Shown here: in pieces, positions 4,766 through 36,734 of the stretch
How positions within the stretch are numbered: position 1 is the first letter of the stretch
Layout: every line of letters begins with the position of its first letter
IMG/VR virus record: IMGVR_UViG_3300020045_005387
Coordinates: 1 to 36,734 of that record
Length of the DNA stretch: 36,734 nt
Source: a virus
Direction: 5' to 3' (one strand)
The notes under the pieces: generated by a model
The model's database searches: none
What the model saw: only the letters and a program-made list of their open reading frames with translations
Told to the model about the DNA's origin: nothing
Made by a program: the position numbers and the translations under genes

Positions 4766-5283
4766 TCGATGAGTTAAATAAATTTGGTGCTTATGTACAA
4801 CAACAAGCCAAAAGCAATCTTTCAAAAAAGAAAAAGAAAGACACGTCTAAACTTTACAACGGGATTAATTACAAGACAACCGAGACAAATGATGGCGCAA
4901 TATTAACTTTTGATTTTAAAGACGCAAACGATTATTGGGAGTTTGTAGATAAAGGAGTAAAAGGTGTTTCAAGTTCAGCGAAAGCACCTAACAGTCATTT
5001 TAAATTCGGAACAGGAACAGGTAAAAAAGGCGGTTTGACAAGTGGAATCAATGGTTGGGTTTCACGTAAACGGATTCAATTTAAAGATAGGAGGACTGGT
5101 CAATTTCTTTCGTATAAGTCAACCGCCTTTTTAATTATGAGAAGCATTTGGAATAAAGGATTAGAAACAACTAACTTTTTTACCAAACCATTTGAGGCAG
5201 CGTTTAAAAGATTACCTGATGATGTTTACGCTGCGTATGGTTTAGAAGTTGAAAAACAAATTAAAATAGCATTGAAATTATGA
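4756..5283 (+). CDS. Putative neck/tail component with an HK97 gp10-like motif
   Basis: DYWEFVDKGVKG resembles the YaxxvExGT motif of gp10-type proteins. Weak call. Confidence 0.35.
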   Translation: MSVVDELNKFGAYVQQQAKSNLSKKKKKDTSKLYNGINYKTTETNDGAILTFDFKDANDYWEFVDKGVKGVSSSAKAPNSHFKFGTGTGKKGGLTSGINGWVSRKRIQFKDRRTGQFLSYKSTAFLIMRSIWNKGLETTNFFTKPFEAAFKRLPDDVYAAYGLEVEKQIKIALKL

Positions 5284-6323
5284 TTAAATCATTGTCCCCA
5301 TATTACCTATACATTCCTTGGATTAGTCCTTTGACATCTACTATATCAACCGCTTACACTTTACGTGTATATGTTTGGGACGGGTTGAAGTTATCGCCTC
5401 CTGCTACAGCAAGTTATACAATGACAAAGCCTAACTTAGCTACATCATCAGGAACGGATAAAGTTGATATTTCACAATTGATAAACGACTATATAGATTT
5501 CGAACCAAACGGGAACAATCAAAGATGGGTTAAAACAACAGTTGTTTACACGACTACAGACGAAGATGATTTAGATGTCGTACAGCTGCCAGTTACTAAT
5601 TTAATGTTGCAAGGTTATGGAGGTGGACTGGATGGAGAAAATGCACAGCCACCAACGAATAAAATATTAATATCTGGCACTGATTTTAAAGTATTCAGAA
5701 ATGGATATTTTAATTTTCCTTTAATTATAAGCGAATCAGATACAGTTAGTGTAACTGTAAAATCTTATCCTGATTTAAACATAAACGACACCTATACTTA
5801 TTTGCCTACAACCAATAATGCTAACATAGTAAAAAATGTTTTGGTAGATTTGTCTTTAGCATTAGGGGACGAAGTTGTAGAGATTATTTATAATGAAGTT
5901 GTAGTGTCTTTATTAATAACAGATGAATGTAGATACGCACCAATTGATATTGCTTTTCAAAATAAAGAAGGAGCGTTACAGTTTGTTACTTTTTTTAAGG
6001 CTAAATCAGAATCTTTAACAGTTACAAATGAAGAATTTCAAAGCGATAGAGGGCAAGCGATTGACGGTAATCATCAAATGGTAACTTATAACGTAAACGG
6101 AAATTCTAAGCTTAAAATTAACTCAGGTTTTATAGATGAGTCAATGAATGAAACTATGAAGCAATTATTTTTAAGTGAAAGGATTTGGCAATTTGACGGT
6201 ACAAATTATATCCCTTTAAAGATTGGAAGTAAAACTTTGGAGTATAAAACACGAATGAAAGACAGGTTAATTAACTATGAAGTTGAATTTGATTATGCTT
6301 TTAACGAAATAAACAACCAGTAA
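5280..6323 (+). CDS. Putative tail structural protein (347 aa)
   Basis: Position immediately upstream of the 750-aa tail protein, with an overlapping start. Confidence 0.4.
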   Translation: MIKSLSPYYLYIPWISPLTSTISTAYTLRVYVWDGLKLSPPATASYTMTKPNLATSSGTDKVDISQLINDYIDFEPNGNNQRWVKTTVVYTTTDEDDLDVVQLPVTNLMLQGYGGGLDGENAQPPTNKILISGTDFKVFRNGYFNFPLIISESDTVSVTVKSYPDLNINDTYTYLPTTNNANIVKNVLVDLSLALGDEVVEIIYNEVVVSLLITDECRYAPIDIAFQNKEGALQFVTFFKAKSESLTVTNEEFQSDRGQAIDGNHQMVTYNVNGNSKLKINSGFIDESMNETMKQLFLSERIWQFDGTNYIPLKIGSKTLEYKTRMKDRLINYEVEFDYAFNEINNQ

Positions 6324-8575
6324 TGTTTGCAAGCTTATACATCGGTAATGACAAATTAGATTTATTCAAGGACGAATCCATTGAGTTGTCTTCAAGTGTT
6401 GCTAACATAAATGACATCACAAAGAACATGACTGACTATTCTAAGTCTTTTACTGTTCCGGCTACACATGCTAACAATATTATTTTTAAACATTATTATA
6501 ATGCTAATATTGACAATGCTTTTGACGCAAGGATTAAGCACTCAGGCAGAATTGAATTATACGGACTTCCTTTTAAGACAGGAAAATGGACTTTAAATAA
6601 AGTAAGTGTAAAGCAAGGCAAACCAAGTTCGTACACTATTAACTTTGTAGGTAACTTAGTTTCTCTTAAAGATAAATTAAAAAACTATGAATTAAAAGAC
6701 TTAGACCTTTCTGCCTACAATCACAATTACAACCCAACAAATGTAAAAACAGGATTAACTTCGTCTTTATTTAGTGGGGCAATAGTATATAATTTATTTG
6801 CTAAAAAACAATTGTATTATCGTTCTGGTAGTGAAAATATTAACACAGCAACACTTGCGAATATAGCTTATACGGGTGGGGCAAACACTGGAGTTAATTG
6901 GGATTTATTAAAACCTTCCATTCAATTGATTAAAATAATTGAAGCAATTGAAACAGATTTTAATATAACTTTTAGCCGTGATTTCTTTGGAACGTCTCAA
7001 TTTCAAAACCTATACCTATGGGCGAATAATTCAGCAACTCTAGTAAATAAAAATGAAGTAAGGATAGATTTTACAAACATTGGTACTATTGGAGCGAATG
7101 CGGGTACAATGGATTTAGTAGAAGATACTTTTACAGCAGGAGGAAAAAGGATTTACGGACTTGTTAGAATTACACCAAGTGCAGGCTATGAAAATGTTAC
7201 TTATAAAATCGAAAGAAAAATAGACGGTAATCCTTGGAATTCTTATTCAGATCTGGATGGTACCACAGAGACATATTATAAAATTGACAGGAATACAGGT
7301 AATAAACATTCTTGGTACGTTACATCAAATGAAGAATTTAAATTTACATCAAGGCTTACAATTGAATTTTTTTACGAATCTTATAATGGAGTTGCTGATT
7401 TTCCAGAGCAAACAATATCTGGGCAGTTAAATGTAGCAATGAACTTCCCCAAATTAAAACTGATTGACTTCTTAAATGGATTGTTTAAGATGTTTAAATT
7501 AGTTGTTATTGCGGATGATTATGACAATATTTATATAGATACATTTAACAATTATTATGCATCAGGAGGCGTTTATAATATATCAAAATATGTGAAGACA
7601 GATACATTAGATGTATCAAAGGGCAATCTTTTAAATGAAATTAACTTCTTGTTCAAAGAACCAAAGACTTTATTAAATAGTCAATTCAAAATAAATACAG
7701 GACAAGGTTATGGGGATGAATCTACTTTGCTTACAGATGACGGGACACCATCAGGGATACCATTAGAAGGGGAAAGTTTATCAATCGAAGTGCCATTTGA
7801 GCAAATAATATACGAAAGGTTAATAGATTTAAACGGTAACGCACTTACAAATATTATGTATGGTGGAATTTTTAACGACAAGATAGAACCAGTTAGCCCA
7901 GACGTTCATATATTTTATAATATTAATACAGCAATAGGTAGTAAAACAATAGGTTTTATTGATGATTTAGGAGTTAGAACGCAGTTAAGTGGAAACATAA
8001 ACACACCGTCTCACTCAGTAGACTTTACTTTGCCAGAGTACAATCTAAATTTCGGAATAGAAAATAATGAGTGGAATAATTCGGCAAGTGAAAACACATT
8101 ATATTTAAACTATTACAAGAATTATATAGAATCAATATTTAACATAAAGAGAAGAAGTTTTAGTTTAAAAGCTATTTTACCATTACGTATTTTATTGAAG
8201 CTGCAATTAAATGATGTACTTGAAATTAAGAATAACTTTTATAGGATTGACAATTATTCTTTAAATTTATTAGACAGAGAAATAACACTTAATCTTATAA
8301 ATTCATTCGACTCAGTACTTGGAGCAATGAGTACTTTAATAACCGCATTGTTTGCAGATAACACAGCGCAAGTGCAGTCTGTTTATGTTAACAATTTAGG
8401 AAATCCGTTGTTTGATGTTGATGGAGCTACTTGGCTGGAGTTGACATATGAGGGTAATAATGTATTCTATACTTTTTTAGAAAATACAACAGGATTAGAC
8501 AGAACTACAAATACAACTATTACAAACACGGAAACGTTAGAAGTAATTGAAATATTAGTAACACAATACGCTTAA
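6323..8575 (+). CDS. Putative tail tip/baseplate structural protein (750 aa)
   Basis: Large protein in the tail module. The N-terminus (LYIGNDKLDLFKDESIELSSSV...FTVPATHANN) is typical of tail-tip proteins. Confidence 0.45.
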   Translation: MFASLYIGNDKLDLFKDESIELSSSVANINDITKNMTDYSKSFTVPATHANNIIFKHYYNANIDNAFDARIKHSGRIELYGLPFKTGKWTLNKVSVKQGKPSSYTINFVGNLVSLKDKLKNYELKDLDLSAYNHNYNPTNVKTGLTSSLFSGAIVYNLFAKKQLYYRSGSENINTATLANIAYTGGANTGVNWDLLKPSIQLIKIIEAIETDFNITFSRDFFGTSQFQNLYLWANNSATLVNKNEVRIDFTNIGTIGANAGTMDLVEDTFTAGGKRIYGLVRITPSAGYENVTYKIERKIDGNPWNSYSDLDGTTETYYKIDRNTGNKHSWYVTSNEEFKFTSRLTIEFFYESYNGVADFPEQTISGQLNVAMNFPKLKLIDFLNGLFKMFKLVVIADDYDNIYIDTFNNYYASGGVYNISKYVKTDTLDVSKGNLLNEINFLFKEPKTLLNSQFKINTGQGYGDESTLLTDDGTPSGIPLEGESLSIEVPFEQIIYERLIDLNGNALTNIMYGGIFNDKIEPVSPDVHIFYNINTAIGSKTIGFIDDLGVRTQLSGNINTPSHSVDFTLPEYNLNFGIENNEWNNSASENTLYLNYYKNYIESIFNIKRRSFSLKAILPLRILLKLQLNDVLEIKNNFYRIDNYSLNLLDREITLNLINSFDSVLGAMSTLITALFADNTAQVQSVYVNNLGNPLFDVDGATWLELTYEGNNVFYTFLENTTGLDRTTNTTITNTETLEVIEILVTQYA

Positions 8576-8705: not shown

Positions 8706-10387
8706 AAAAGCAGATTAACATCGTTGTTAAAGAGACAGGACTTGACCAAGTTCAGAAACAAGTAAACAAACTTGATTCCTCATTGGAAAATTTAAGCGAC
8801 ACCAATAAAGGGGTAACTAAATCTATGGGAGAAAGTTCGAATGCTGTATTGGACAATGGTGGAGCAATGGGGTTACTTAATGATGCCACAGGTGGATTAG
8901 CTATGACGGTTAAGGACGCAGTAGAAGCATCTGTTTTATTTACAAAATCGCAAAAGCTTAGTGCAACATGGCAGACTATTTACACAACTGTAATAGGAAC
9001 GTCTACAGGAGCTTTAAAAGCCTTTAGAATTGCTTTGGCTGCTACGGGGATAGGATTGATAGTTATTGGTTTAGGATTATTGATTGCAAATTTTGACAAG
9101 GTAAAGAAAGCTGTTTTGGCTTTTATTCCAGGACTTTCAATTGTTGGTGATATATTTACAAAATTAGTTCAAACGGTTACTGATTTTGTAGGAGTTACTT
9201 CAGATGCTTCCCGTGAGTTGGACAGATTAGGAAAACAAGCAGACAAAACTTTAGCAAAAAATAAATTTGCATTAGAAGCCTATGGTGATACTTATGACGA
9301 ATACACCAAAAGAAAAATAGAGGCAAATTCTAAATACGCCCAACACGTAAAAGACATAAATGAAGATGAAACGTTAAGCGAAAAACAAAAACTTGAAAGG
9401 TTAAAAATACTTCGTACAACTGCTAATAGAGAAATTGATAAAGCAGAAGCGGATAGGATTGCGGAAAGAAATAAAAAAGCTAAAGAGGCACAGGACAAGA
9501 TTGACGAACAAAATAAAGAAGCTGCTGACAAAGCTAAAGAAGCAAGAAAAAAAGCAGCGGAGGAAAGAGCTGCGGAAGAAAAAAAGATTGCAGACGAAAA
9601 ACTAGCAGCAGATTTAGAAAGCGCAAAAGAAGCTCTATCAATTGTTGACGAACTGAAAAAAAACGCAGAGACTCCAGCGCAAAAAGAACAAAGGGAGTTC
9701 GAAGAAAAGAAAGCTGTTTTAGAAGCTAATAATTTATCTACACAAGAACTTGAAAGACAGCATATAGAAGCTATGGCTGCCATTTCAGAAGAAGAGCGCA
9801 AGAATAAAGAAGCTGTTCAAAAAGATAAAGAAGCAAAAGATAAAGAGGCTGCTGAAAAAGAAATAGCAGAAGCGCAAGCCGTTGCTGATGCTAAATTAGC
9901 AATTCAAAATGGAACACTTGACACAGTAAGCGCAGGAATTGGTTTATTGAAAAGTTTAGGTGAAAAAAGTAAAGCTGTGCAAAAAGCTACATTGATTGCT
10001 GAAAACGCTGCAGGAATAGCCAAAACAATAATAAATACAGTTGCTGCAAACGCAAAATCAGTAGCAGCATCACCATTAACAGCTGGACAGCCTTGGGTAT
10101 CTTTAAACACAATAAGTGCAGGTATCGGAATAGCTTCGTCAATTGCAGCAACAGCGAAGGGATTATCTGCCTTAGGTGGAGGCGGAAGCGCAGGAGGTGG
10201 TTCATCTTTGCCGTCTGGTTCATCAGCACCAAGCGCGCCCTCTTTTAATTTAGTTCAAGGTACTAACTCAAATCAAATTGCATCATCGATAAATAATCAA
10301 CAACCTATCGAAGCTTTTGTAGTTTCTAAAAATGTTACCAGTGGACAAGAACTTGATAGAAACATTATAAAAAGTGCAAGTTTATAA
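8696..10387 (+). CDS. Tape-measure-like protein (563 aa)
   Basis: Hydrophobic segment ALAATGIGLIVIGLGLLIANF, a long K/E/A-rich coiled-coil centre and a Gly/Ser-rich C-terminus. Confidence 0.6.
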   Translation: MAIEKQINIVVKETGLDQVQKQVNKLDSSLENLSDTNKGVTKSMGESSNAVLDNGGAMGLLNDATGGLAMTVKDAVEASVLFTKSQKLSATWQTIYTTVIGTSTGALKAFRIALAATGIGLIVIGLGLLIANFDKVKKAVLAFIPGLSIVGDIFTKLVQTVTDFVGVTSDASRELDRLGKQADKTLAKNKFALEAYGDTYDEYTKRKIEANSKYAQHVKDINEDETLSEKQKLERLKILRTTANREIDKAEADRIAERNKKAKEAQDKIDEQNKEAADKAKEARKKAAEERAAEEKKIADEKLAADLESAKEALSIVDELKKNAETPAQKEQREFEEKKAVLEANNLSTQELERQHIEAMAAISEEERKNKEAVQKDKEAKDKEAAEKEIAEAQAVADAKLAIQNGTLDTVSAGIGLLKSLGEKSKAVQKATLIAENAAGIAKTIINTVAANAKSVAASPLTAGQPWVSLNTISAGIGIASSIAATAKGLSALGGGGSAGGGSSLPSGSSAPSAPSFNLVQGTNSNQIASSINNQQPIEAFVVSKNVTSGQELDRNIIKSASL

Positions 10388-11522: not shown

Positions 11523-12434
11523 ATGGCAACTACAGTAACAGTAACTTCCAACTATGCAGGCAAAGAAGCTGGCGAAATAGTTGGACAAGCATTTAAAGAA
11601 GCGGATACAATTGCAAAAGGATTTGTAACCGTATTTCCAAACGTAAACTTTAAATTGAATTTGAGAAAAATTCTTTTGACAGGTGGTAAAAGAGAATACA
11701 CTTGTGGACACGTTCCAGCTGGTGCAATCACTTTGAGCGAAAAAGTTTTAGAACCTAAAAAATTCAAAGACGATTTCGAAATCTGTAAAGAAGACTTTAG
11801 AGCGCAATGGAGCGAAGACACAATGGGTGCAAGCGCACACAACGATAACGCACCTAAAGATATTATGGACGCAATCCTTGTTGAGAAACTAGGACAAACA
11901 GCAGAGGAATTAGACGATAACATTTGGAACGGTGACGGAACAAACGCAGACGAATTTGATGGTTTCTTGAAATTGTTCGCAGCTGATGCAACAGTTATTG
12001 ACGTTGATATTCCAGCAGCAACAACTGAATCAAATGTTGAAGCTCACTTGAAATTAGCCTTAAACGCTGTTCCAATTGAATTGAGAAGAAAAACGTTAAA
12101 AGTAGGTGTTTCTCCAGATATTTATCAAGCCTACAACTTCTTGTTGATTTCAAAAGGAATTTTGAATGGATTAGGAGGAGACTCAAATACAGCAATGAAA
12201 ATTGGTAAATATATGTTAGATGAAGTTAACGGGTTACCAACAAATACAATCGTAATTGCAGAGCCTAAAAACTTAATCTTTGGAACTGGATTGTTAGCAG
12301 ACCACAACGAAGTAAAAATGGTTGACCAAGACGATACATTATTGAATGGTAAAATCATCGGAACAATGGTTTACAATGCTGGTGTACAGTATTATAACGG
12401 TGCTGAAATAGTTTGGGCTAGAGAGATAGCATAG
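11523..12434 (+). CDS. Major capsid protein
   Basis: A 303-aa protein directly after the protease/scaffold gene and followed by a strong hairpin. Confidence 0.75.
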   Translation: MATTVTVTSNYAGKEAGEIVGQAFKEADTIAKGFVTVFPNVNFKLNLRKILLTGGKREYTCGHVPAGAITLSEKVLEPKKFKDDFEICKEDFRAQWSEDTMGASAHNDNAPKDIMDAILVEKLGQTAEELDDNIWNGDGTNADEFDGFLKLFAADATVIDVDIPAATTESNVEAHLKLALNAVPIELRRKTLKVGVSPDIYQAYNFLLISKGILNGLGGDSNTAMKIGKYMLDEVNGLPTNTIVIAEPKNLIFGTGLLADHNEVKMVDQDDTLLNGKIIGTMVYNAGVQYYNGAEIVWAREIA

Positions 12435-22397: not shown

Positions 22398-22425
22398 AAA
22401 CCACTTTAATTAGTGGTTTTTTTAT
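22398..22425 (+). terminator. Rho-independent terminator ending the late operon
   Basis: aaaccact-ttaatt-agtggttt followed by tttttt. Confidence 0.8.
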
Positions 22426-22435
22426 ACTTACAAGT

Positions 22436-22496
22436 GTTAAATATATGTTAAAATGAAATAAAATAGTTTCTAATTATTATATGTTTTGTATATTTG
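22436..22496 (+). promoter_or_regulatory. Promoter module P1: tandem GTTAAA repeats plus the -7 box TATATTTG
   Basis: GTTAAA at 22436 and GTTAAAA at 22447 (11-bp phasing). TATATTTG at 22489 is exactly 42 bp after the second repeat. Confidence 0.65.
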
Positions 22497-22739: not shown

Positions 22740-22749
22740 CAATTAGCGG

Positions 22750-22876
22750 TAACGTTTTGCGCATATATGATGTTGCGTAAAAATAAAACCGAATTTCCGA
22801 TTAATCACAGATTAAAACAAATACAAACCAATTTATAAATTGAGCCTAATCTAGCAATAGCATATATGCGCTGTTA
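22750..22876 (+). repeat. attC-like structured element A (127 nt)
   Basis: TAACG 22750, then arm GCGCATATATG 22759-22769 pairing with CATATATGCGC 22861-22871, TTGC/GCAA, and TGTTA 22872-22876. Confidence 0.75.
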
Positions 22877-22911
22877 GGGTGCGTAGTGGATAATTGAAAC
22901 AAAAATAACTT

Positions 22912-23184
22912 ATGGAAACATTTAATATTGATAATGAAATTTTATCAAAACTAAACGGTGTTAAAAATGAATGCTCTGATTATTTGGAAGAATTGAGAAA
23001 AAGAAAAACAATTATTCTAAACTTAAATAATGAAGAGAACAATTCTAAATCAGCCCTAGAGTTTAAAGAATGGAAAATTAAAAACTATAAAGAAATGGTT
23101 AAAAAAAGTGACGATAATTTATTTTCACGAAAAGGAGATCTTATTTTGCAACTAGAAGAATTATTAACTGATTTAAAAAAATAG
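22912..23184 (+). CDS. Hypothetical coiled-coil protein (90 aa)
   Basis: ORF track. Confidence 0.6.
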   Translation: METFNIDNEILSKLNGVKNECSDYLEELRKRKTIILNLNNEENNSKSALEFKEWKIKNYKEMVKKSDDNLFSRKGDLILQLEELLTDLKK

Positions 23185-23189
23185 AAATT

Positions 23190-23528
23190 ATGGGATGTTA
23201 TATTTATATTAACGAAAATGAACAAAAAAGCAAAAGAACTGTAGAAGACAAGGAATTGAATGAATTGCTTCAAGAAGCTCTTAAATACGATAAAACTATA
23301 ATGCTTTCGTCTTATTCTATTTATGAAAAGAAATCTTTATTTGACAAGAAAAAAGCAATTGTACATTACTCTTTATATCACGAGATTTTCAACAATAAAG
23401 GCGAATCTATGATGGAGGCAAGACAACAAATTTCAGGAAGTGGTAAAAAAGAGATTGTGTCTGCTTATTTATACGGAATTATTAACGGTGCAAATGTTGA
23501 TAAATTATCTTATGAAAACGAAATGTAG
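23190..23528 (+). CDS. Hypothetical protein (112 aa)
   Basis: ORF track. Confidence 0.6.
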   Translation: MGCYIYINENEQKSKRTVEDKELNELLQEALKYDKTIMLSSYSIYEKKSLFDKKKAIVHYSLYHEIFNNKGESMMEARQQISGSGKKEIVSAYLYGIINGANVDKLSYENEM

Positions 23529-23532
23529 CTGT

Positions 23533-23547
23533 TGTTATGCCTAGTAC
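23533..23547 (+). repeat. Orphan 3' half-site B (TGTTATGCCTAGTAC) with no convincing paired stem upstream
   Basis: It has the same TGTTA core and downstream TAGTACGG motif as the full elements. It is complementary to the 5' flank of element C. Confidence 0.55.
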
Positions 23548-23585
23548 GGAAAAAGTAAATATTAACTAAATAAATTATAAACAAA

Positions 23586-23861
23586 ATGAATGTATCAAAA
23601 GAAGTAGCTGGTTTACGTAAAATTTATGATAAACTACAAGCAAAGCTCGAAAAAGAACAAATAAGATTAGACCAGAGAGATCAATATTACGGTGAACGTT
23701 CTGAAAAATGGCAAGAAAGCAAAAAAGGATTAGACTATGAAGCTGATTCAAGTATTTTAGGAAATGATTTAGAAAACTTTGAACAGGAATTATCTAATCT
23801 TGATGACGTAATTACTGAAATTGCATCAATAGGAGAAAGTTCTTTTGATTCAATTTCGTAG
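23586..23861 (+). CDS. Hypothetical acidic coiled-coil protein (91 aa)
   Basis: ORF track. Confidence 0.6.
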   Translation: MNVSKEVAGLRKIYDKLQAKLEKEQIRLDQRDQYYGERSEKWQESKKGLDYEADSSILGNDLENFEQELSNLDDVITEIASIGESSFDSIS

Positions 23862-23870
23862 TATTAGGCA

Positions 23871-23996
23871 TAACGGTTCGCTAGTATGAAACGGGATGGA
23901 TTAGCAATCCTAGACCATCCCAAAGCGGAATCAAACCAAATACACACCAGTAATCAAATTAATCACCAATACCGTACTGTTTTATACTAGCTGTTA
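23871..23996 (+). repeat. attC-like structured element C (126 nt)
   Basis: TAACG 23871, then arm GCTAGTATGAAAC 23880-23892 pairing with GTTTTATACTAGC 23979-23991 (one G-T), and TGTTA 23992-23996. An inner hairpin is formed by gggatgg and ccatccc. Confidence 0.75.
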
Positions 23997-24030
23997 TAAG
24001 AAGTACGGATAATTAAATAAAAACGAAATT

Positions 24031-24231
24031 ATGGAAAGAGAAAATTATTTACTAAGCAAAATACCTAAAGGATTAGATTATGATTCTAAATACGGAGATA
24101 ATTTTAATAAATACGCTAGATATATGGGTAATGGTGTTTATTCTTGGAAAGGAATACACGCAACAGACACAAGAATATTGTTTTTAACAGGAGTTCTAAT
24201 TAGCGAAAAAGTTCATTTTAAGCAGGAATAG
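24031..24231 (+). CDS. Hypothetical protein (66 aa)
   Basis: ORF track. Confidence 0.6.
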   Translation: MERENYLLSKIPKGLDYDSKYGDNFNKYARYMGNGVYSWKGIHATDTRILFLTGVLISEKVHFKQE

Positions 24232-24242
24232 AGTATTACTTA

Positions 24243-24326
24243 TAACGGTTGCGCTTGGTGCAGGTTGCTAGCAGGGATTTGAACCGAAGAACAAAAGTTG
24301 TGGCAACTTGCTCCAAACGCTTGTTA
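24243..24326 (+). repeat. attC-like structured element D (84 nt)
   Basis: TAACG 24243, then arm 24251-24268 pairing with 24303-24320 (16 of 18 positions, including one G-T), and TGTTA 24322-24326. Confidence 0.75.
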
Positions 24327-24361
24327 GGGATATACCACGAATTACTAATCAATTAAAAATT

Positions 24362-24718
24362 ATGAAAATGAATAGAGTAATAAAATTCAGAGCATTTGAT
24401 AAATTAAACAATAAAATGTTTTTTTGGGAATTACCAAATTTTGATAGCAAACACGCATCACATTATGACAATTTGACGCAATTTACTGGCTTGGTTGATA
24501 GAAATGGAGTTGATATTTATGAAGGGGATATTTTGTGGAGATATGAATCTACTGGAGCAAAAATAAAATCATTTTGTGAAATTATTTATGATAAAGATAG
24601 ATTTATACCCAAGTGGATAACTATATCTTGGTTTAATGATTATCTAAGAAATCACGCAAAACACCTAAGTGTAATAGGTAATATTTATCAAAACCCTGAA
24701 TTATTATCCACAAACTAG
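24362..24718 (+). CDS. YopX family protein
   Basis: KFRAFDKLNNKMF...LTQFTGLVDRNGVDIYEGDIL...VIGNIYQNPELL. ATG 24362 is preferred, because the track start at 24308 lies inside element D. Confidence 0.85.
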   Translation: MKMNRVIKFRAFDKLNNKMFFWELPNFDSKHASHYDNLTQFTGLVDRNGVDIYEGDILWRYESTGAKIKSFCEIIYDKDRFIPKWITISWFNDYLRNHAKHLSVIGNIYQNPELLSTN

Positions 24719-24729
24719 GCGGTTATCCC

Positions 24730-24857
24730 TAACGGATGGTGCTTGTCTCAGTGGCTAAAATTCAAGACCCAAGCACAACCGATAAATCCTAATTAATCCC
24801 GCCAGCGGTTTTTCCGAAGGAAAAAACGATACAAGCCATTGATACAAGCACGTGTTA
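24730..24857 (+). repeat. attC-like structured element E (128 nt)
   Basis: TAACG 24730, then arm 24740-24756 pairing with 24834-24850 (16 of 17 positions, including one G-T), and TGTTA 24853-24857. An inner hairpin is tttttcc-gaa-ggaaaaa. Confidence 0.75.
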
Positions 24858-24903
24858 CCATCATACCACGTAACATATTTTTTAACTAATTAAATTATAA
24901 AAA

Positions 24904-25326
24904 ATGAAATTAAAGATTAAAAAAGAAGTTGAAGTAGAAATAAAAACACTTCACGTAAGAGCAGGAGTAAGATATTGGGAAGATGCAACAGTTGACGGAA
25001 TTGAAGACAATGACGGAAAATTAATTCCTTGCAGAGTTATCGATGAAGAAGATTGGCTTCCTGTAATAGAAATCGAAACGGGTAAAATTATCAACTGGAA
25101 ACAAGGAGTTACTGCTGATATTCATTATAAAGTTTGCGATGATGGAGATTATTATTTACTCGATGAAAATGACGACGAAGTGGTGCATTTAAACGGATAT
25201 GTTCCAAAAACTTTATGTCCTGAAGAAAATGGATATGGTGATTATATCATTATGAAAGTTGATGCAGAAGGACAAATTAATAATTGGAAATTTAACCTTT
25301 CAGATTTTACTGAAGACGAAGATTAA
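24904..25326 (+). CDS. Strongly acidic hypothetical protein (140 aa)
   Basis: ORF track. Asp/Glu-rich throughout and ends in TEDED. Confidence 0.65.
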   Translation: MKLKIKKEVEVEIKTLHVRAGVRYWEDATVDGIEDNDGKLIPCRVIDEEDWLPVIEIETGKIINWKQGVTADIHYKVCDDGDYYLLDENDDEVVHLNGYVPKTLCPEENGYGDYIIMKVDAEGQINNWKFNLSDFTEDED

Positions 25327-25348
25327 CCGCAATATTGGCGGTTGATGG

Positions 25349-25474
25349 TAACGTTATCAGGCTTGCAGAAGTGGCAAAAAAGCAAGCCTTAATTTTCGAT
25401 TTTACCAAAACATTATAGACACAAAAACAACTTTAAATTAAACCTGAACTTGCCATTTTTGCAAACCTGTGTTA
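25349..25474 (+). repeat. attC-like structured element F (126 nt)
   Basis: TAACG 25349, then arm 25359-25377 pairing with 25450-25468 (18 of 19 positions, including two G-T), and TGTTA 25470-25474. Confidence 0.75.
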
Positions 25475-25507
25475 GCATTAGTGCGGTTCTTTAAAACTGA
25501 ATTTATT

Positions 25508-25723
25508 ATGAGTGAAGAATTTATTAAAGAAGCTAAAAACTTCAAAAAACAAATGAAATGGTGTGCAATAATTTCTTGGTTCGCAACAGCCTTTTTAACA
25601 TATAAAGCATCTGATAAAATTGATGATTGGGGAATTATAATATTTGGAGCAATTGTTTTTACAATTATTTATTTCAATATGAGTAAAAATATAAGTTCTT
25701 ATGAAAACCAATCGCAGCATTGA
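25508..25723 (+). CDS. Small membrane protein (71 aa, two TM segments)
   Basis: MSEEFIKEAKNFKKQMKWCAIISWFATAFL...GIIIFGAIVFTIIYF. ATG 25508 is preferred, because the track start at 25469 lies inside element F. Confidence 0.6.
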   Translation: MSEEFIKEAKNFKKQMKWCAIISWFATAFLTYKASDKIDDWGIIIFGAIVFTIIYFNMSKNISSYENQSQH

Positions 25724-25726
25724 TGC

Positions 25727-25855
25727 TAACGATGGGTGATATAAGAGGATTTTCGGAATAATAAATCCCTATGCTACCCTCATGAATGTTGCTACCAAGT
25801 ACAAACAAATTTTTAAATTAATCACAATGCCGAAAATCGCTTATATCATGTGTTA
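25727..25855 (+). repeat. attC-like structured element G (129 nt)
   Basis: TAACG 25727, then arm 25737-25756 pairing with 25830-25848 (9 bp, a small internal loop, then 8 bp), and TGTTA 25851-25855. Confidence 0.75.
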
Positions 25856-25883
25856 GGGAATCGGCTTTATAACACCAAAAAAG

Positions 25884-26120
25884 ATGGACGAACAAATTAA
25901 ACAACAGTTAAGACAGAAAAAAATTAGGGAAATGAAAAACCCGGCTATCTTAATGAATGATATTGATTTTGAAAACTTTAAAAAAGAAGTTGAATCAAAA
26001 GTAGTTAATTTTAAAGTGGGCGAAAATCCAACTTATGAAGGTATTCCGATAAAAGTAAATGAATTTATAGAAAAGGGAAATATTATTGTTTACGACGATG
26101 TTGCGCAAGCTGTTCCCTAA
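25884..26120 (+). CDS. Hypothetical protein (78 aa)
   Basis: ORF track. Its stop codon is embedded in the half-site TTCCCTAAC. Confidence 0.6.
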   Translation: MDEQIKQQLRQKKIREMKNPAILMNDIDFENFKKEVESKVVNFKVGENPTYEGIPIKVNEFIEKGNIIVYDDVAQAVP

Positions 26121-26121
26121 C
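26113..26121 (+). repeat. Orphan 5' half-site H (TTCCCTAAC) overlapping the stop codon. It marks the array boundary.
   Basis: Perfect reverse complement of GTTAGGGAA at 25852-25860. I could find no stem or 3' TGTTA partner downstream. Confidence 0.5.
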
Positions 26122-26123
26122 TA

Positions 26124-26714
26124 ATGGCTAAGACTCATAAATGTATTACAATTATGAAAAAATACACTAAAACAAAGGTTATTCGCCTTTCAGAAACACA
26201 ACATAAAACTTTACAAAAAATGAAAGAATATAATATAGATGTTGGTCAATTCATAAGAAATGCAATAGCCGAAAAGATAAAAAGAGAACATTCAGAACTT
26301 ATACCAAAAGTTAAAAAAGCAATTTGTCCTTTTTTATTATTACTATTTATAAGCTGCGGACATCGCACAACAGAACTAAGAAAAGTGTCTATTCGTTCAG
26401 ATTCTTTATACATCGAAAACGAGCGTAAATTATCATCAAATTTACTTTTGAATGATATAGGTTCAATAATCCCTTTTGATAGCTCTAAGCCTATGCAAAT
26501 AAACGGTAATTGGTATTACAACGCTTCAATTAGTTATGACAGGTCACGCTTTGAAAACTTTGAGATAATCGATAAAGTTAAAAAAGTAGAAATAAAAAAA
26601 GAGGAACAAATTAAAGAAAAAACAACAGAGAAAACGGATAATACAATACTGTATTTAGGATTATTCTTTATAGTGTGTTTATTTGTGTTTTTATGGTTTA
26701 AATTAAAACGTTAA
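26124..26714 (+). CDS. Ribbon-helix-helix-like N-terminal domain fused to a membrane-spanning protein
   Basis: KVIRLSETQHKTLQKMKEYNIDVGQFIRNAIAEKIKRE (RHH pattern), an internal segment AICPFLLLLFISCG, and the C-terminal TM segment ILYLGLFFIVCLFVFLWF. Confidence 0.5.
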   Translation: MAKTHKCITIMKKYTKTKVIRLSETQHKTLQKMKEYNIDVGQFIRNAIAEKIKREHSELIPKVKKAICPFLLLLFISCGHRTTELRKVSIRSDSLYIENERKLSSNLLLNDIGSIIPFDSSKPMQINGNWYYNASISYDRSRFENFEIIDKVKKVEIKKEEQIKEKTTEKTDNTILYLGLFFIVCLFVFLWFKLKR

Positions 26715-31356: not shown

Positions 31357-31466
31357 TTGCTTTATAGTAATCTACCACTTACGATAAGATATTTTAGTGT
31401 AAAAACTAAACCGACAAATCCGTTAATAGTGTGGTAGCTGTTAGCGGATTTTGTCATTATAAAAAT

Positions 31467-33719
31467 ATGGAAAAGCATTATTTAAAAAAATTATCAGAAA
31501 TTGGATTTTCTATAATACCATGTGCGGAAAATAAAGCACCAATAGGAACTTGGAAAAAGTATCAAGAAGAGGCGAGAACTCCCGAACAGGTGGAGTTATT
31601 AAATAGTCCTAAATATGGAATCGTTACAGGTTTTAATAATTTAGAGGTTATAGATATTGATTGTAAAACTCTATCTACTTTAAAAGAACAAAAAGAGTTT
31701 TGGGACGAGTATTTAGGTTTTTTAAAGGACAATATAGATGATTTTGATAAAAAATTTGTTATAAAAAAGACCTTAAACAAAGGCTTTCATATTCTTTATC
31801 GATGTAAGTCATTAATAGGAAATACTAAGATAGCTAAATTAAAAGGAAGCTCAGAGGCTCTTATAGAAAGTAGGGGCTTGGGAGGTATGGTTATAGCGTA
31901 TGATGATACTTTGTCAACTATTAATTATCATGAGATACAAGAAATAACCCCAGAGGATAGAGAGATATTATGGAGTTGTTCACGAACTTATAATTATGTT
32001 GAGGACATTCCAATTGAACCTGTTAAATCAAAAACAGAATATCAGGAATCAGAAATCACCTGTTGGGATGATTATAATCAAAAGACAGATATTTTTGATG
32101 TTATAGGTTCAGATTTTAGCATTGTAGCAAATCATACAAAAAAATATGTTATTAAAAGGCATGGTTCAGCATCACCGCATTCAGGCTATGTTTACAAAGA
32201 TGATAATAGAATGTATTTGTTTAGTACAGGTACTATTTATCCGCATGAAAAACAAGTAACACCCTTCATAGCTTATACTTATAAATATCATCACGGTGAT
32301 TTTAGTGAATCAGCAAAAGACTTATATCAAAAAGGTTTTGGATCTAGGTTAAAATCAAAAATTAAAGAATTAAAAAAATCAATTGATACACAAGAAGAAA
32401 CTAAAATCAACATACAGGATTTAGTTTTTCCTATTGATATTTTTCCTTCAGACATTCAAAAATATTTAATTGAGTGCAATACTAAATTAGATAGTTCTGT
32501 TGAATATATGGGATGCTCTTTGCTGTGGCTTATATCTGTTTGTGTTGGAAATAGTATTGAGGTTGAAGTAAAAAAAGGATGGACAGAAAACTTAAGTGTT
32601 TGGATTTCAATTGTTGGAAAAGCTGGTTTAGGAAAAACGCCAAGTATTTCAAATATAGTATTTCCATTAACAAAAATTAATGCAAAAGAGATAAAGAAAT
32701 ACATTAAAGAATCAGAAAAATACGAACACTATATTAACCTGCCTAAAAAAGAAAAGGACGAACATAGCGAAGTGTTTAAACCAATTAAAACGCAATTTAT
32801 TGCCAACGATATAACCTTAGAAGCTTTGGTTGATTTACATCAAGAAAGCGATAATGCTGTTGGAGTATTTAAAGATGAGTTAGCGGGTTGGCTTAAAGAT
32901 ATGAATAAATATCGTGAGGGTTCAGATTTGGAGTTCTGGTTAAGTACATGGTCAGGCAAATCAGTAAATCTCAATCGTTTAACTAGAAAAGGCTCTTTTG
33001 TTGAAAAACCATTTATTCCAGTTCTTGGAGGAATCCAACCAAGTATTTTTAACACTTTTTATACAGATGAGAATAAAGATAATGGGTTCATGGACAGGAT
33101 GCTTTTATGTTATCCTGATTTAAAAATAGACCATTACAATGACAACGAAATTAGTGATGATATTCTAAAATGGTATAAAGAAATAGTTATTTCATTTTAT
33201 GATACAATTAAAAGTGTTATTAAAAGAGATGATGAAGGGGATATAACACCATTAACCGCTAAGTTTTCTGAAGATGCCAAAACAGAATGGAAAAGAATTT
33301 TTAATGAAATGACGGATATACAGAATAATGAAGAAGAAAACGAATATTTAAAATCAATGTTCCCTAAACAAAAATCTTATATCCCTCGTTTTGCTTGTTT
33401 AATACATGTTTTTGATGAGTTTTTTAGCGAAGGGGGTAATACTTTGCTTATTTCAAAAGAAAGTGTCTTAAAAGCTGAAAAACTAAGCAAATATTTTATT
33501 GCTACAGCTAAAAAGATAAAGGTTAATTCAGTTGATGTATCAAAATTAAAAAATACTATTACAGCCAACAAGGGGAAGAATGAAAAAGAAAAGCTTTTTG
33601 AGATATGGAAGTTAAATGATAAGTTCAATCGTTCCGAAACTGCTGAACTTTTAGGTATTTCAAAAAGAAGTGTTTTTAATTGGGTTAAAGAATTTGATAG
33701 TGCAAATGATAAAAAATAA
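31467..33719 (+). CDS. Bifunctional primase-polymerase / helicase-like replication protein
   Basis: A prim-pol-like N-terminus (GFSIIPCAENKAPIGTWKKYQ...VIDIDCK), Walker A GKAGLGKT in the C-terminal NTPase domain, and a terminal HTH (AELLGISKRSVFNWVKEF). Confidence 0.85.
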   Translation: MEKHYLKKLSEIGFSIIPCAENKAPIGTWKKYQEEARTPEQVELLNSPKYGIVTGFNNLEVIDIDCKTLSTLKEQKEFWDEYLGFLKDNIDDFDKKFVIKKTLNKGFHILYRCKSLIGNTKIAKLKGSSEALIESRGLGGMVIAYDDTLSTINYHEIQEITPEDREILWSCSRTYNYVEDIPIEPVKSKTEYQESEITCWDDYNQKTDIFDVIGSDFSIVANHTKKYVIKRHGSASPHSGYVYKDDNRMYLFSTGTIYPHEKQVTPFIAYTYKYHHGDFSESAKDLYQKGFGSRLKSKIKELKKSIDTQEETKINIQDLVFPIDIFPSDIQKYLIECNTKLDSSVEYMGCSLLWLISVCVGNSIEVEVKKGWTENLSVWISIVGKAGLGKTPSISNIVFPLTKINAKEIKKYIKESEKYEHYINLPKKEKDEHSEVFKPIKTQFIANDITLEALVDLHQESDNAVGVFKDELAGWLKDMNKYREGSDLEFWLSTWSGKSVNLNRLTRKGSFVEKPFIPVLGGIQPSIFNTFYTDENKDNGFMDRMLLCYPDLKIDHYNDNEISDDILKWYKEIVISFYDTIKSVIKRDDEGDITPLTAKFSEDAKTEWKRIFNEMTDIQNNEEENEYLKSMFPKQKSYIPRFACLIHVFDEFFSEGGNTLLISKESVLKAEKLSKYFIATAKKIKVNSVDVSKLKNTITANKGKNEKEKLFEIWKLNDKFNRSETAELLGISKRSVFNWVKEFDSANDKK

Positions 33720-33720
33720 A

Positions 33721-33954
33721 TGCACGGTGTGCACGCCACGTGCACGGTAAAATATCAACGTTTACAGGGGTTAACGACGAAAATCGTGCAAAATGCACGG
33801 TGCACGGTAAATAATAATAAAAAAAATAAATAAAAATAAATAAATATTTTATAATCCAACCGTGCAAAATGCACGATTTAGGCTGTTAGGGCGCATAAAC
33901 ATTGAAAAACAACCGTGCACCAACCGTGCAAAAACACTATGCACGAACCGTGCA
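33721..33954. promoter_or_regulatory. Putative replication origin: TGCACGGT/ACCGTGCA iterons, two CGTGCAAAATGCACG palindromes and an AT-only unwinding tract
   Basis: Forward 8-mers at 33721, 33741, 33794 and 33801, with a variant at 33730. Reverse 8-mers at 33859, 33912, 33923 and 33947. Palindromes at 33785-33799 and 33861-33875 flank the A/T-only run 33809-33857. Confidence 0.75.
33772..33888 (+). repeat. attC-like element O, enclosing the origin AT-rich core (117 nt)
   Basis: TAACG 33772, then arm AAATCGTGCA 33781-33790 pairing with TGCACGATTT 33870-33879, and TGTTAGGG from 33884. Same architecture as elements A-G. Confidence 0.5.
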
Positions 33955-33976
33955 AAAACAGCTAAAAATACTAAAT

Positions 33977-35206
33977 ATGAAAGAACTTAGACAATATCAG
34001 AAGGAAATAGCTATAAAAGCAGTAAACATATTAAATAATTTAAAAATAGTTTATTTAGCCTGCGAGGTTAGGACAGGAAAAACCCTTATGGCTTTAGAAA
34101 CAGCTAAACAATTTGGGGCAAAAAATGTTTTATTTGCAACTAAGAAAAAAGCAATTAAATCTATTTTAAACGATTATAATGATTTTGGATATACATTTGT
34201 ACTAACTGTTATAAATAATGAATCCTTACATACGATAGATGGTAAATTTGATTTATTAATATCTGACGAGCATCACAGAAACGGTGCTTTCCCAAAAACT
34301 AATAATTGCACTAAGTTAATTAAAGAAAAATATTCAAAATTACCTATGATTTTTTTAAGCGGGACACCTACTCCGGAATCATACTCGCAAATTTATCATC
34401 AATTTTGGTTATCTGACTATACACCATTCAAAAACTATGTTAATTTTTATAAATGGGCGAAAGACTTTGTAAATATTAAAAAAAAATATTTGGGTTATGC
34501 TGAGGTAAACGATTATTCTGATGCTAAACAAGAATTAATAAAAAAAGTAATTGATAAATATTTTATAACATTTACTCAAAAAGAAGCAGGTTTTACAACA
34601 TCTGTAAATGAAAATATATGTAATGTTGATATGTTACCTATAACCTACAAAATAGCTGACACTTTAAAAAAAGATAAAATATACACTGGTAAAAATGATT
34701 GTATTATAGCCGATACAGGGGCAAAGTTAATGAGTAAATTACATCAACTATATTCTGGAACTTGTATTTTAGAAAGTGGTATTTCAATTATAATTGATAA
34801 TTCAAAGTTACACTTTATAAAAGAAAAGTTTAAAAACAATAAGATAGCTATTTTTTATAAGTTCCAAGCAGAAAAAGAAATGATATATGATTTTTATAAA
34901 GAATCTGTTTGTTTTGATTTAGAAACTTTTGATAATAGCGATAAAAATATAGCTTTACAAATAGTGTCTGGACGTGAAGGAATAAGTTTGAAAAATGCTG
35001 AATATTTAATTTATTTAACTCCTGATTTTTCAGCTACATCTTATTGGCAATCGAGAGATAGGTTGACAACAATGGACAGAAAAGAAAACAATGTTTTTTG
35101 GATTTTTTCAAATGGAGGAATTGAGAAAAACATTTACAAAGCAATTCAAGCTAAAAAAAATTATACATTATCAATATTTAAAAAAGATTATGGCATTAGA
35201 AAGTAA
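33977..35206 (+). CDS. Superfamily 2 (SNF2/DEAD-like) DNA helicase
   Basis: Motif I EVRTGKT and motif II DEHH. ATG 33977 is preferred, because the track start TTG 33902 lies in the iteron region. Confidence 0.8.
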   Translation: MKELRQYQKEIAIKAVNILNNLKIVYLACEVRTGKTLMALETAKQFGAKNVLFATKKKAIKSILNDYNDFGYTFVLTVINNESLHTIDGKFDLLISDEHHRNGAFPKTNNCTKLIKEKYSKLPMIFLSGTPTPESYSQIYHQFWLSDYTPFKNYVNFYKWAKDFVNIKKKYLGYAEVNDYSDAKQELIKKVIDKYFITFTQKEAGFTTSVNENICNVDMLPITYKIADTLKKDKIYTGKNDCIIADTGAKLMSKLHQLYSGTCILESGISIIIDNSKLHFIKEKFKNNKIAIFYKFQAEKEMIYDFYKESVCFDLETFDNSDKNIALQIVSGREGISLKNAEYLIYLTPDFSATSYWQSRDRLTTMDRKENNVFWIFSNGGIEKNIYKAIQAKKNYTLSIFKKDYGIRK

Positions 35207-36413: not shown

Positions 36414-36734
36414 ATGAAAACACCAACATTAGAAGAGCTTAAAGAGTATTTTAAAGATGCTGAAATTGTAAGAGAATCAACTTTTAAAGGAAGGTATTTT
36501 AAAATAAATTTGGATGAAGTTGAAGAAACTGCACTTGGTAATTGGATTCAAGATGATTACTATTTATACAATAAAGGTATTGGTTTTGCTGAAATTATAT
36601 CTTATAAAGAAGTTGAAAAGCCAATATTTCAAATATTTGACGAAGAAGAAAAAAAATGGTATGATTTACACGACCAAAATCTATACAGAATTAAACCAAA
36701 GACAAACTACGACAAAGAAATTGAAGCTTTGCAA
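36414..36734 (+). CDS. Hypothetical protein, 5' portion of the gene that wraps across the window ends (continues at 122..175)
   Basis: ATG 36414 (MKTPTLEELKEYFKDAEIV...) is open to the window end and stays in phase with 2..175. Confidence 0.7.
   Translation, partial: MKTPTLEELKEYFKDAEIVRESTFKGRYFKINLDEVEETALGNWIQDDYYLYNKGIGFAEIISYKEVEKPIFQIFDEEEKKWYDLHDQNLYRIKPKTNYDKEIEALQ
36614..36734. repeat. Second copy of the 121-bp terminal repeat
   Basis: Identical to 1..121. An ORF reads continuously through the junction. Confidence 0.95.

Follow-up and report, generated by a model that had tools for sequence, protein, structure and literature searches.

Integrons have so far been regarded as a bacterial device that is nearly absent from Bacteroidetes, and the IntegronFinder 2.0 paper records next to no integrons in this group. 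Qi et al. (2023, PMC9892861) described clusters of attC sites lacking integron-integrases (CALINs) in the genomes of temperate as well as virulent phages, where they often surround genes for DNA methyltransferases. The available text of that report relies on canonical attC models and gives two sites in a Polaribacter phage, with none named in Flavobacterium phages. A second described system is that of the promoter early stem-loops (PeSLs) of T4-type phages, for which mini-circles have been both proposed and detected (Arbiol et al. 2010, PMC2839356; Comeau et al. 2014, PMC4122927). Here we analyze a 36,734-nt stretch of viral DNA (IMG/VR record IMGVR_UViG_3300020045_005387, positions 1 to 36,734; hereafter the window), in which small plus-strand open reading frames (ORFs) at 22.4–26.2 kb are separated by stretches of 84–129 nt that start with TAACG and end with TGTTA. 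We conclude that 22.75–26.12 kb is probably an integrase-less array of integron-like cassettes, belonging to a non-canonical family specific to Bacteroidota and recombined at TAAC, probably by a host enzyme. The original prediction for this locus, made from sequence alone, knew of no attC-type array in a lytic phage, although CALINs in virulent phages had been reported in 2023.

The window ends with an exact 121-nt direct repeat of its beginning (1–121 and 36614–36734) and is thus complete, a phage genome of about 36.6 kb that closes into a circle. The phage is of virulent type. When the rest of the window was compared with GenBank phages by megablast, no near relative was found, and only element E5 and the region of the ribbon-helix-helix (RHH) gene matched other phages. 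The stretches between the small ORFs share a fixed order of parts: TAAC, a G with about four unpaired nucleotides, an imperfect stem of about 20 bp, a big A/T-rich loop, the 3' arm of the stem, one or two nucleotides, and GTTA. TAACG and TGTTA are the only invariant parts, and the stem varies in sequence yet remains paired. A covariance model (R1) was built from 39 element copies after an initial heuristic search. Across these copies, 91.5% of stem cells were paired, compared with 35%–49% when partners were slid, and the covariation score was 0.60, reached by none of 500 shuffles, versus 0.08–0.12 for slid partners. Element length is narrowly distributed (median 126 nt, interquartile range 125–127), the unpaired spacer is asymmetric (5 nt versus 1–2 nt), and conserved G·T mismatches lie where attC would show clear extrahelical bases. 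Within the window, exactly seven elements stand out under R1, all on the plus strand, and the next match has an E value of 0.77. Six of the seven (E1 to E6) form the array at 22.7–26.1 kb, and E7 lies apart (Table 1).

ORFs in the array are bracketed by a short sequence and its reverse complement. The original prediction noted that the sequence just after one TGTTA is the reverse complement of that just before the next TAAC, beyond the intervening ORF. We confirm this observation. The six flank pairs it quoted are all present where it placed them, and the first is complementary at 13 of 14 positions, with a G opposite a T as the lone mismatch. Pairing holds in all six bracketed units, two of which are incomplete: the unit starting at 23534 has no upstream hairpin, and the TAAC at 26118 has no hairpin following it. 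The spacings between sites and ORFs were about as given, except that one leader measures 48 nt rather than at most 46 nt. Past the 4-nt GTTA/TAAC cores, perfect complementarity extends by a further 4–6 nt in every pair (Table 1). Among 984 control pairs of GTTA and TAAC, 100–1100 nt apart and outside the array, 0.41% reach at least 4 nt. The four pairs with an element at both ends (E2–E3, E3–E4, E4–E5, and E5–E6) all reach this length, with a chance probability of about 2.7e-10; since the ends of these pairs are fixed independently by the flanking elements, no choice of site entered the test. Non-cognate pairs inside the array reach 4 nt in 2 of 42 cases. As predicted, the two flanks of the same element do not match, with 0–3 nt of complementarity across 61 elements.

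The same rule was found well beyond the window. In about 20 phage loci, 30 of 41 neighboring element pairs extend by 4–6 nt (6 nt in 21 pairs, 5 nt in seven, and 4 nt in two), and most of the zero values among the 41 reflect an intervening element missed by the detector. In bacterial loci, 72 of 95 neighbor pairs extend by 4–6 nt, and across 44 phage and 95 bacterial pairs the perfect extension is at most 6 nt. Position 7 is a G on the GTTA side opposite a T on the TAAC side in 14 of 18 phage pairs and 42 of 44 bacterial pairs, and about three further base pairs follow. A cassette therefore starts with GTTA, a 6-nt box, and G, and ends with T, the complementary box (box'), and TAAC. Homologous ORFs in different phages carry differing, fully compensated boxes; what is maintained is the pairing. 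Two homologous ORFs with 95% amino acid identity, in loci L004 and L005, have GGAGCA/TGCTCC and AGCACA/TGTGCT, respectively. The window ORF at 25508–25723 has GCATTA where its homologue in contig L003 has TGGTTA, the latter in a compensated pair (TGGTTA/TAACCA), and homologous ORFs in L003 and L010 have TGGGCA and TCGCCA. The interpretation of the complementarity across the ORF as the cassette's own split R-box is supported. An automatic origin of the complementarity, by target duplication or hairpin opening, was also considered and was rejected because the repeats are inverted, lie 250–1000 bp apart, and flank different elements.

Comparisons between relatives showed that whole units come and go, and that they do so at TAAC. 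The IMG/VR contig L003/L019 is about 95% identical to the window on either side of the array, and collinearity between the window and L003 ends 6 nt ahead of the first TAAC. Within the array, L003 is missing five of the window units and has one in common; the remaining 4.3 kb of its array consists of different units, some with methyltransferases, every one of them bracketed likewise. Muminvirus phages of Baltic Flavobacterium have 13 elements in a leftward early operon, and the F. psychrophilum phage 6H has seven. Among Muminvirus strains with flanks that are 99.8%–100% identical, mumin6-4 is missing one unit (hairpin plus gp008), leaving the junction …AGCGGT^TAACGTT^ATCAGG…; filifjonk has three additional units, inserted at TAACGTT; and tooticki and mymlan have replaced units with TAAC at both bounds, including the terminal TAAC of the array. 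In these four strain-level events, all eight junctions are at TAAC and none is at TGTTA. At every junction, the upstream ORF keeps its box' and the hairpin accompanies the ORF that follows it, so that in the phage an ORF's own element is the upstream one. The phage unit is hairpin, TGTTA, box, ORF, box', and TAA^C. Blocks shared between loci also have starts that accumulate at offset 0 of TAAC.

These events bear directly on what had been predicted. The units do behave as integron-type cassettes with hairpin sites of TAAC/GTTA core, at which relatives gain, lose, and replace whole units. Unit boundaries had been expected at TGTTA; presence, absence, and replacement of whole units were found as expected, with breakpoints at TAAC instead. 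Crossover within TGTTA on the ORF-sense strand is contradicted by the eight junctions, each of which falls in TAAC, either the one that opens an element or the terminal one. The pairing of each phage ORF with the site downstream of it also fails, as the Muminvirus junctions and the comparison of the window with L003 both put an ORF's own element upstream. We had ourselves first assumed a TGTTA crossover with the ORF owning the downstream element, and we rejected it on the same two comparisons. On the complementary strand, the TAAC junction reads G^TTA, so the chemistry originally proposed may still hold. The original interpretation is thus partly supported: right in kind, and wrong on the side of the crossover and on which ORF owns which site.

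Two further features of phage units were observed. In some units, the ORF (several methyltransferases and gp008) begins within the hairpin loop, for example as M-x-DKVELKDET…, and reads through the 3' arm and TGTTA, so that the site is partly coding; examples are at 5644–5769 and 7880–8000 in L003 and at 3495–3623 and 4895–5014 in L001. Phage 6H (L047) has two identical copies of one 256-nt unit on the reverse strand, at 9370–9634 and 11754–12018, with two oppositely oriented genes between the copies and the second copy behind a 5'-truncated hairpin.

The elements are also present in bacterial chromosomes, with arrays on more than 100 contigs of Bacteroidota genomes. One genome per species was scanned with the pattern TAACGTT-N5-7-CTTGGCGAAGT, which returned at least 120 contigs, overwhelmingly from Bacteroidota. 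Among the matches listed, isolates with the pattern belong to Flavobacterium, Chryseobacterium, Kaistella, Pedobacter, Arundinibacter, Emticicia, and Arcicella, and the pattern is also found in many metagenome-assembled genomes (MAGs) of Chitinophagaceae and Saprospiraceae and in some Ignavibacteria. Many of the element-bearing contigs are 0.3–5 Mb long. Applied to the first 80 of the at least 120 blocks, R1 gave 141 matches, with up to eight elements per 8 kb. E5 of the window is 89% identical to an element of unrelated Muminvirus phages (megablast) and 75% identical to a Flavobacteriaceae chromosome element (L125, 3556–3684). Good R1 matches were also seen in MAG contigs labeled Paceibacteria, Saccharibacteria, and Gammaproteobacteria (L128, L166, L081, and L066), which may be mis-binned contigs or true spread outside Bacteroidota. 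Among the genes carried by the bacterial arrays are restriction-modification systems (MmeI and NotI), toxin-antitoxin pairs, an OLD-family ATPase, and an erythromycin esterase, a set typical of integrons, along with a flavin monooxygenase and a C5 methyltransferase. No cargo in common was found when the window cargo ORFs were compared with the bacterial array loci.

Orientation differs between the two settings. Of the ORFs lying between elements, 71 of 94 in bacteria run antisense to the element strand, versus 1 of 43 in phages (42 of 43 phage ORFs are sense). In ORF sense, the bacterial unit reads TTA-N6, ORF, N6'-TAAC, hairpin, and G, which is exactly the integron cassette layout, with the bottom strand as the folded strand. 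Because polarity and G·T positions are constant whichever way the genes run, the feature appears to act as DNA and not as RNA. This bears on the possibility that the elements are RNA-level intercistronic hairpins for processing, stability, or termination, with the flank pairing forming a panhandle around each cistron. Such a role would fit the position of phage elements between ORFs of one operon on the sense strand, the conservation of G·U-compatible wobbles, and the T-rich tract that follows the box. However, with antisense ORFs, bacterial transcripts would have C·A mismatches at the G·T positions in an otherwise unchanged architecture, and the RNA panhandle was rejected on this orientation. 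A scan of the whole window against Rfam 15 gave no relevant match (at 22.4–26.2 kb, one chance match to a snoRNA model with an E value above threshold), no terminator signal was found, and an RNA function does not predict unit-wise gain and loss at TAAC. We consider it very unlikely.

Bacterial arrays are linked to a tyrosine recombinase. In Arundinibacter roseus, a 558-aa tyrosine recombinase is encoded 1.8 kb from the array. Its top family models are an archaeal XerA/integron-integrase model and an integron-integrase model, both just below their cut-offs and above XerC/XerD; the score against TIGR02249 is 209 bits, with a cut-off of 265 bits. The closest solved structure is VchIntIA (E value 4e-37, with the alignment in two pieces), and the IntI-specific insertion is missing, since the recombinase has 35 residues where VchIntIA (IntI4) has 77. 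Homologues were found in at least 10 of 120 element-selected 8-kb blocks, and more than 2650 homologues of about 540–570 aa exist, for which the only annotation is XerD or site-specific integrase. In three of four homologues tested, the N-terminal half contains HARP repeats that exceed the Pfam threshold. In a reverse test of three integrase loci taken regardless of elements, all three have an R1 element, antisense, directly following the gene next downstream of the integrase. In L173, L174, and Arundinibacter L058, bracketing of the first cassette starts at a junction 100–450 nt beyond the integrase, and in L058 the core covaries (GTTG with CAAC); no partner box was found for the first cassette of L175. 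A short gene for a single-stranded DNA-binding protein (SSB) adjoins the integrase in three of four loci (L174, 9604–9945; L175, 9570–9917; and L058, 3933–4280). A search of GenBank phages and IMG/VR with the full-length HARP-integrase returned matches to the catalytic core only, plus one viral contig with a short homologue.

The nature of this enzyme helps to weigh a reading of the locus as an ordinary CALIN of canonical attC sites, with cassettes moved by the standard IntI of some host. The AAC/GTT core, imperfect hairpin, split R-box, and array organization are all shared with attC, six R1-defined sites lie within 3.1 kb in a phage with no integrase, and the start of the cassette is complementary to the inverse core of its own site (TTA-N6…N6'-TAAC-hairpin-G, complementary to the phage ORF strand), as in canonical cassettes. 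A member of the family was even detected by HattCI in the published phage screen: P12002L_attC1 of Polaribacter phage P12002L (…TAACGGCTACGGCTAAACGG…CCGTTTTAGCCATTGTTA…) has the TAACG…TGTTA ends described here (PMC9892861), although it is shorter than most members of the family. In the related phage P12002S, the elements are 55 nt long. On the other hand, in the available text of that study, P12002L_attC1 is the exception among six phage sites assayed with IntI1, the sole one without a verified attI1/attC junction, and no Flavobacterium phage is named in a screen of 10,705 phage genomes. No intI gene was found in the phage, the recombinase of the bacterial arrays lacks the IntI-specific domain and scores below both integron-integrase model cut-offs, the unpaired spacer is asymmetric, the box is not RRRY, and integrons are almost absent from Bacteroidetes in the IntegronFinder 2.0 paper. 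A canonical attC array therefore seems to us quite unlikely.

Hairpin-guided single-strand transposition, by an HUH/Y1 enzyme in the manner of IS200/IS605 or REP-RAYT or as in miniature inverted-repeat transposable elements, would place insertions 3' of TAAC and use the GTTA-box to guide the distal end. IS200/IS605 and REP/RAYT elements have a strand-specific hairpin, insert 3' of a fixed tetranucleotide, and have ends set by pairing near the foot of the hairpin; in IS608, a guide sequence pairs with the cleavage site, similar to what the GTTA-box would do. The elements described here may share these three properties, as insertion is constantly 3' of a fixed tetranucleotide and the distal end appears to be set by pairing at the hairpin foot. 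In contrast, IS200/IS605 and REP/RAYT are found as dispersed copies, and the elements here form tandem cassette arrays adjoining a tyrosine recombinase, with no linked HUH/Y1 protein among the window ORFs or the genes flanking the bacterial arrays examined. We regard this explanation as extremely unlikely.

For the integron-like array, we propose the following mechanism. The recombination site would be the imperfect hairpin of about 126 nt on one defined strand, and the mobile unit would span one TAAC to the next, comprising on the element strand the hairpin body, TGTTA, 6-nt box, G, cargo ORF, T, box', and TAA^C. In a circular or single-stranded unit, box'-TAAC could pair with GTTA-box into a 14-bp stem that closes the base of the hairpin (4 + 6 bp, the G·T, and 3 bp), a putative counterpart of the attC R-box that would set the end of the unit. 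Exchange would occur inside TAAC on the folded strand, equivalent to G^TTA on the complement. It would be a single-strand exchange that replication finishes, as in integrons, and that may be ongoing; the enzyme would probably be supplied by the host and belong to the HARP–SAM_4–Phage_integrase family of tyrosine recombinases found beside the bacterial arrays. Phage cargo ORFs are flipped relative to the bacterial arrangement, each read along the early operon with its own site upstream.

Several observations weigh against this reading. Pfam and PHROG searches of about 50 window ORFs, covering the complete 36.6-kb genome, found no tyrosine or serine recombinase or HUH protein, and a shared-protein comparison of three array-bearing phage groups found no common enzyme; a phage without such an enzyme would depend on its host, with action in trans assumed. 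Clear cases of the HARP-integrase come from Cytophagales, Sphingobacteriales, Chitinophagales, and Saprospiraceae. In Flavobacteriales the case is a broken copy in a MAG, and an enzyme in the Flavobacterium host is assumed. The boxes are not free, having the consensus K-S-N-G-Y-W, which does not follow RRRY. The 7 nt TAACGTT is common to the strain-level junctions, which could therefore equally result from co-infecting phages exchanging DNA by homology or microhomology. Five unrelated ORFs, preceded by different elements, lie within one frame, GTTAGGGAATCGGCTTT…AAGCTGTTCCCTAAC, and four of the five end in a frame-encoded …QAVP-stop. Additionally, box' before E1 differs between the window (TAGCGG, 22744–22749) and L003 (TGCATA, 5260–5265) despite 95% identity of the adjoining ORF. 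As the frame and this box' are not explained by exchange at TAAC alone, frames, hairpin bodies, and ORFs also appear to reassort in other ways. Two degenerate junctions in the window (23533 and 22873) suggest that part of the array may be fossil.

The lack of a recombinase in the phage, the 7 nt common to the junctions, and the reassortment of frames, elements, and ORFs at several points also favor movement of regulatory hairpin cassettes by ordinary homologous or microhomology recombination in the style of PeSLs, with TAACG(TT), TGTTA, and the frames serving as short homologies for the phage's own functions and no dedicated recombinase in the phage. The phage encodes an exonuclease, a VRR-NUC-like nuclease, and an HNH endonuclease, and the array is at the start of the early operon in a plastic region, as PeSLs are (PMC2839356). 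Such recombination leaves unexplained the cassette-specific 6-bp complementarity, its compensated changes, and the fixed G·T, as well as a strand polarity that is independent of gene direction and the bacterial link to a dedicated tyrosine recombinase. Neither promoters nor terminators are enriched in the region: 11 sigma-70-type promoters were found versus 22.8±5.9 expected, in a scan that did not extend to Bacteroidota promoter types, and two intrinsic terminators versus 1.3 expected, none within an element. The strong sigma-70-type early promoter with terminator stem-loop that characterizes PeSLs was not found, with the same limit on promoter types. We find this explanation unlikely and retain that of an integron-like array.

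The ending QAVP-stop was seen at four loci (window, 26107–26121; L014, about 7460–7483; L009, about 9140–9163; and L005, minus strand). It is encoded by the conserved AAGCTGTTCCCTAAC, and the TAA of TAAC forms the stop codon (GGGAAT frame). This hints at fusion of new ORFs into pre-existing frames.

The features of the array and its surroundings are given in Table 1.

Table 1. Coordinates of hairpin elements, ORF units, and the adjoining gene in the window
Feature	Position	Strand	Description
Element E1	22750–22876	+	First hairpin site of array; R1 102.6 bits; folds
Degenerate unit	22873–23537	+	Two ORFs (22912–23184, 23190–23528); ends at orphan TGTTA 23533–23537
Bracketed ORF unit	23534–23874	+	GTTATGCCTA (23534–23543), ORF 23586–23861, TAGGCATAAC (23865–23874); extension 6 nt, then G·T, then TAC
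Element E2	23871–23996	+	R1 77.9 bits; fold z = -2.65
Bracketed ORF unit	23993–24246	+	GTTATAAG, ORF 24031–24231, CTTATAAC; extension 4 nt
Element E3	24243–24326	+	Short 84-nt variant; R1 36.5 bits, E 2.9e-5
Bracketed ORF unit	24323–24733	+	GTTAGGGATA, YopX-family ORF 24362–24718, TATCCCTAAC; extension 6 nt
Element E4	24730–24857	+	R1 50.3 bits; fold z = -3.1
Bracketed ORF unit	24854–25352	+	GTTACCATCA, ORF 24904–25326, TGATGGTAAC; extension 6 nt
Element E5	25349–25474	+	R1 103.6 bits
Bracketed ORF unit	25471–25730	+	GTTAGCAT, ORF 25508–25723, ATGCTAAC; extension 4 nt
Element E6	25727–25855	+	R1 71.7 bits
Last unit	25852–26121	+	GTTAGGGAA, ORF 25884–26120, TTCCCTAAC; extension 5 nt
RHH-like gene	26124–26714	+	Ribbon-helix-helix; at downstream end of array in many phages
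Probable solo element E7	33772–33888	+	TAACG…TGTTA; 10+8 bp arms; fold z = -3.1

At the upstream end of the array, no partner was found for the downstream box of E1 (GGGTGC), with GCACCCTAAC absent from the window, and box' before E1 has no partner box in either the window or L003. No hairpin precedes the orphan TGTTA that closes the degenerate unit, where R1 gives a 10.4-bit match (23483–23537), and we read this unit as a fusion following the loss of one element. The short E3 is 86% identical to an element of L010 (9464–9593), and the YopX assignment rests on a Pfam match at 1.8e-23. At the other end, the terminal TAAC (26118–26121) abuts the RHH-like gene with no hairpin beyond; it is the array terminus and corresponds in position to the integrase-proximal (attI-like) end seen in bacteria. 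The end that the integrase holds in bacteria is the end that a conserved RHH-like gene holds in phages. An RHH-like module of about 70 aa (phrog_25647) directly follows the last TAAC in many otherwise different phages (L004 to L018; L045, 9114–9251), and the window version continues into a membrane-like part at its C-terminus, to which it is fused.

Just upstream of the array, a terminator-like hairpin (22398–22419) is followed by promoter-like sites (22427–22480), which fits the array being the head of the early operon. The solo element E7 lies between a primase/DUF3987 gene (31431–33719) and an SNF2-type helicase gene (33902–35206); its R1 score of 21.6 bits (E value 0.027) is that of a sequence which was itself a seed of the model. 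No partner for its box (GGGCGC) was found in the window, and E7 may be a relic or else mark a point of entry within the replication module. Elsewhere in the genome, the gene at 962–1489 is homing-endonuclease-like (NUMOD4–HNH_3–AP2), lies upstream of the terminase, adjoins a sigma-70-region-2-like ORF (378–860), and has a 40%-identical homologue in Muminvirus (gp034).

Together, the arrays and the recombinase point to a little-recognized gene-swapping system common to Bacteroidota and their viruses. A fuller version of this picture, on which we see the balance as even, is that Bacteroidota (Flavobacteriales, Chitinophagales, Cytophagales, Sphingobacteriales, and Saprospirales), possibly with Ignavibacteria, have a widespread integron-like system largely missed by standard tools. 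It would combine a HARP–Xer/IntI-like integrase of about 550 aa, whose gene often adjoins one for SSB, with an attI-like junction downstream and with arrays of TAACG…TGTTA sites of about 126 nt, in which a 6-bp box addresses each cassette. Virulent Flavobacterium phages would tap this pool with flipped, integrase-less arrays at the head of the early operon, swapping methyltransferases and small early genes via the host enzyme. If so, a distinct site family that has its own recombinase, is common in Bacteroidota chromosomes, and occurs in several unrelated groups of Flavobacterium phages would bring cassette-based gene capture to a major phylum and to lytic viruses. It would also offer a concrete mechanism by which aquatic phages rapidly replace their small early genes and anti-restriction genes (methyltransferases), as well as a route of gene flow between phage and host. 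The compensated 6-bp box, fixed G·T, and exact TAAC junction lead to testable predictions for recombinase biochemistry, and the covariance model allows annotation of arrays now left as "intergenic" DNA and "XerD".

Among the closest known systems are integron cassettes and their attC sites, especially the V. cholerae repeats of about 123–126 nt in sedentary chromosomal integrons. In both, mostly promoterless small genes are arranged in tandem, each with an imperfect hairpin site; an AAC/GTT core is conserved; and the remainder of a cassette's own core is at its far end, complementary to the inverse core. Both also have one-strand polarity, uniform site length per lineage, unrelated cargo behind near-identical site ends, and, in the bacterial arrays here, cargo rich in restriction-modification, toxin-antitoxin, defense, and resistance genes. 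The differences are in the site and in the enzyme. In place of RYYYAAC/GTTRRRY, the core here is TAACG/TGTTA with a 6-bp box, the fixed G·T, and another 3 bp, giving an R stem of 14 bp, and the spacer is asymmetric, compared with the unpaired central spacer of about 5/5 nt in canonical attC. The recombinase has an N-terminal HARP-like extension and is without the IntI insertion; it is co-directional with the cassettes, and the attI-like junction is downstream of its gene. Phages have no integrase with their arrays, and their ORFs lie in inverted orientation with respect to the site.

Phage CALINs (PMC9892861) are likewise integrase-less arrays of attC-type sites in phage genomes. The available text of that report does not recognize a separate family, the 6-bp box rule, arrays of 6–13 sites, flipped ORFs, or a cognate recombinase. 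In the literature on Flavobacterium phages and Bacteroidota, with most subscription journals outside the search, we found no description of the family, box rule, integrase, or phage arrays, and the site family, its integrase, and the flipped phage orientation appear to be undescribed. The PeSLs of T4-type phages (PMC2839356; PMC4122927) resemble the array in having repeated stem-loops that separate small accessory ORFs, in an early region that is plastic and belongs to a virulent phage, and in having motif-bounded insertions, deletions, and replacements between close relatives. Unlike the arrays here, PeSLs are promoter-plus-terminator motifs that work through homologous recombination, and they are without cassette-specific flank complementarity, a fixed crossover tetranucleotide, or a bacterial counterpart with a recombinase.

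A partial parallel may be drawn with Xer recombination. The layout of a conserved arm, a 6-bp variable center, and a second conserved arm recalls a dif-type core site, and TGTTA is present in the E. coli XerD arm. At CTXφ attP, host XerCD acts on a hairpin folded from one phage strand, and the single-strand exchange is resolved by replication. The mechanism proposed here would similarly have a host-encoded Xer-type recombinase act on a folded phage strand; the difference is that CTXφ puts the whole phage into dif, whereas tandem sites would here exchange single genes.

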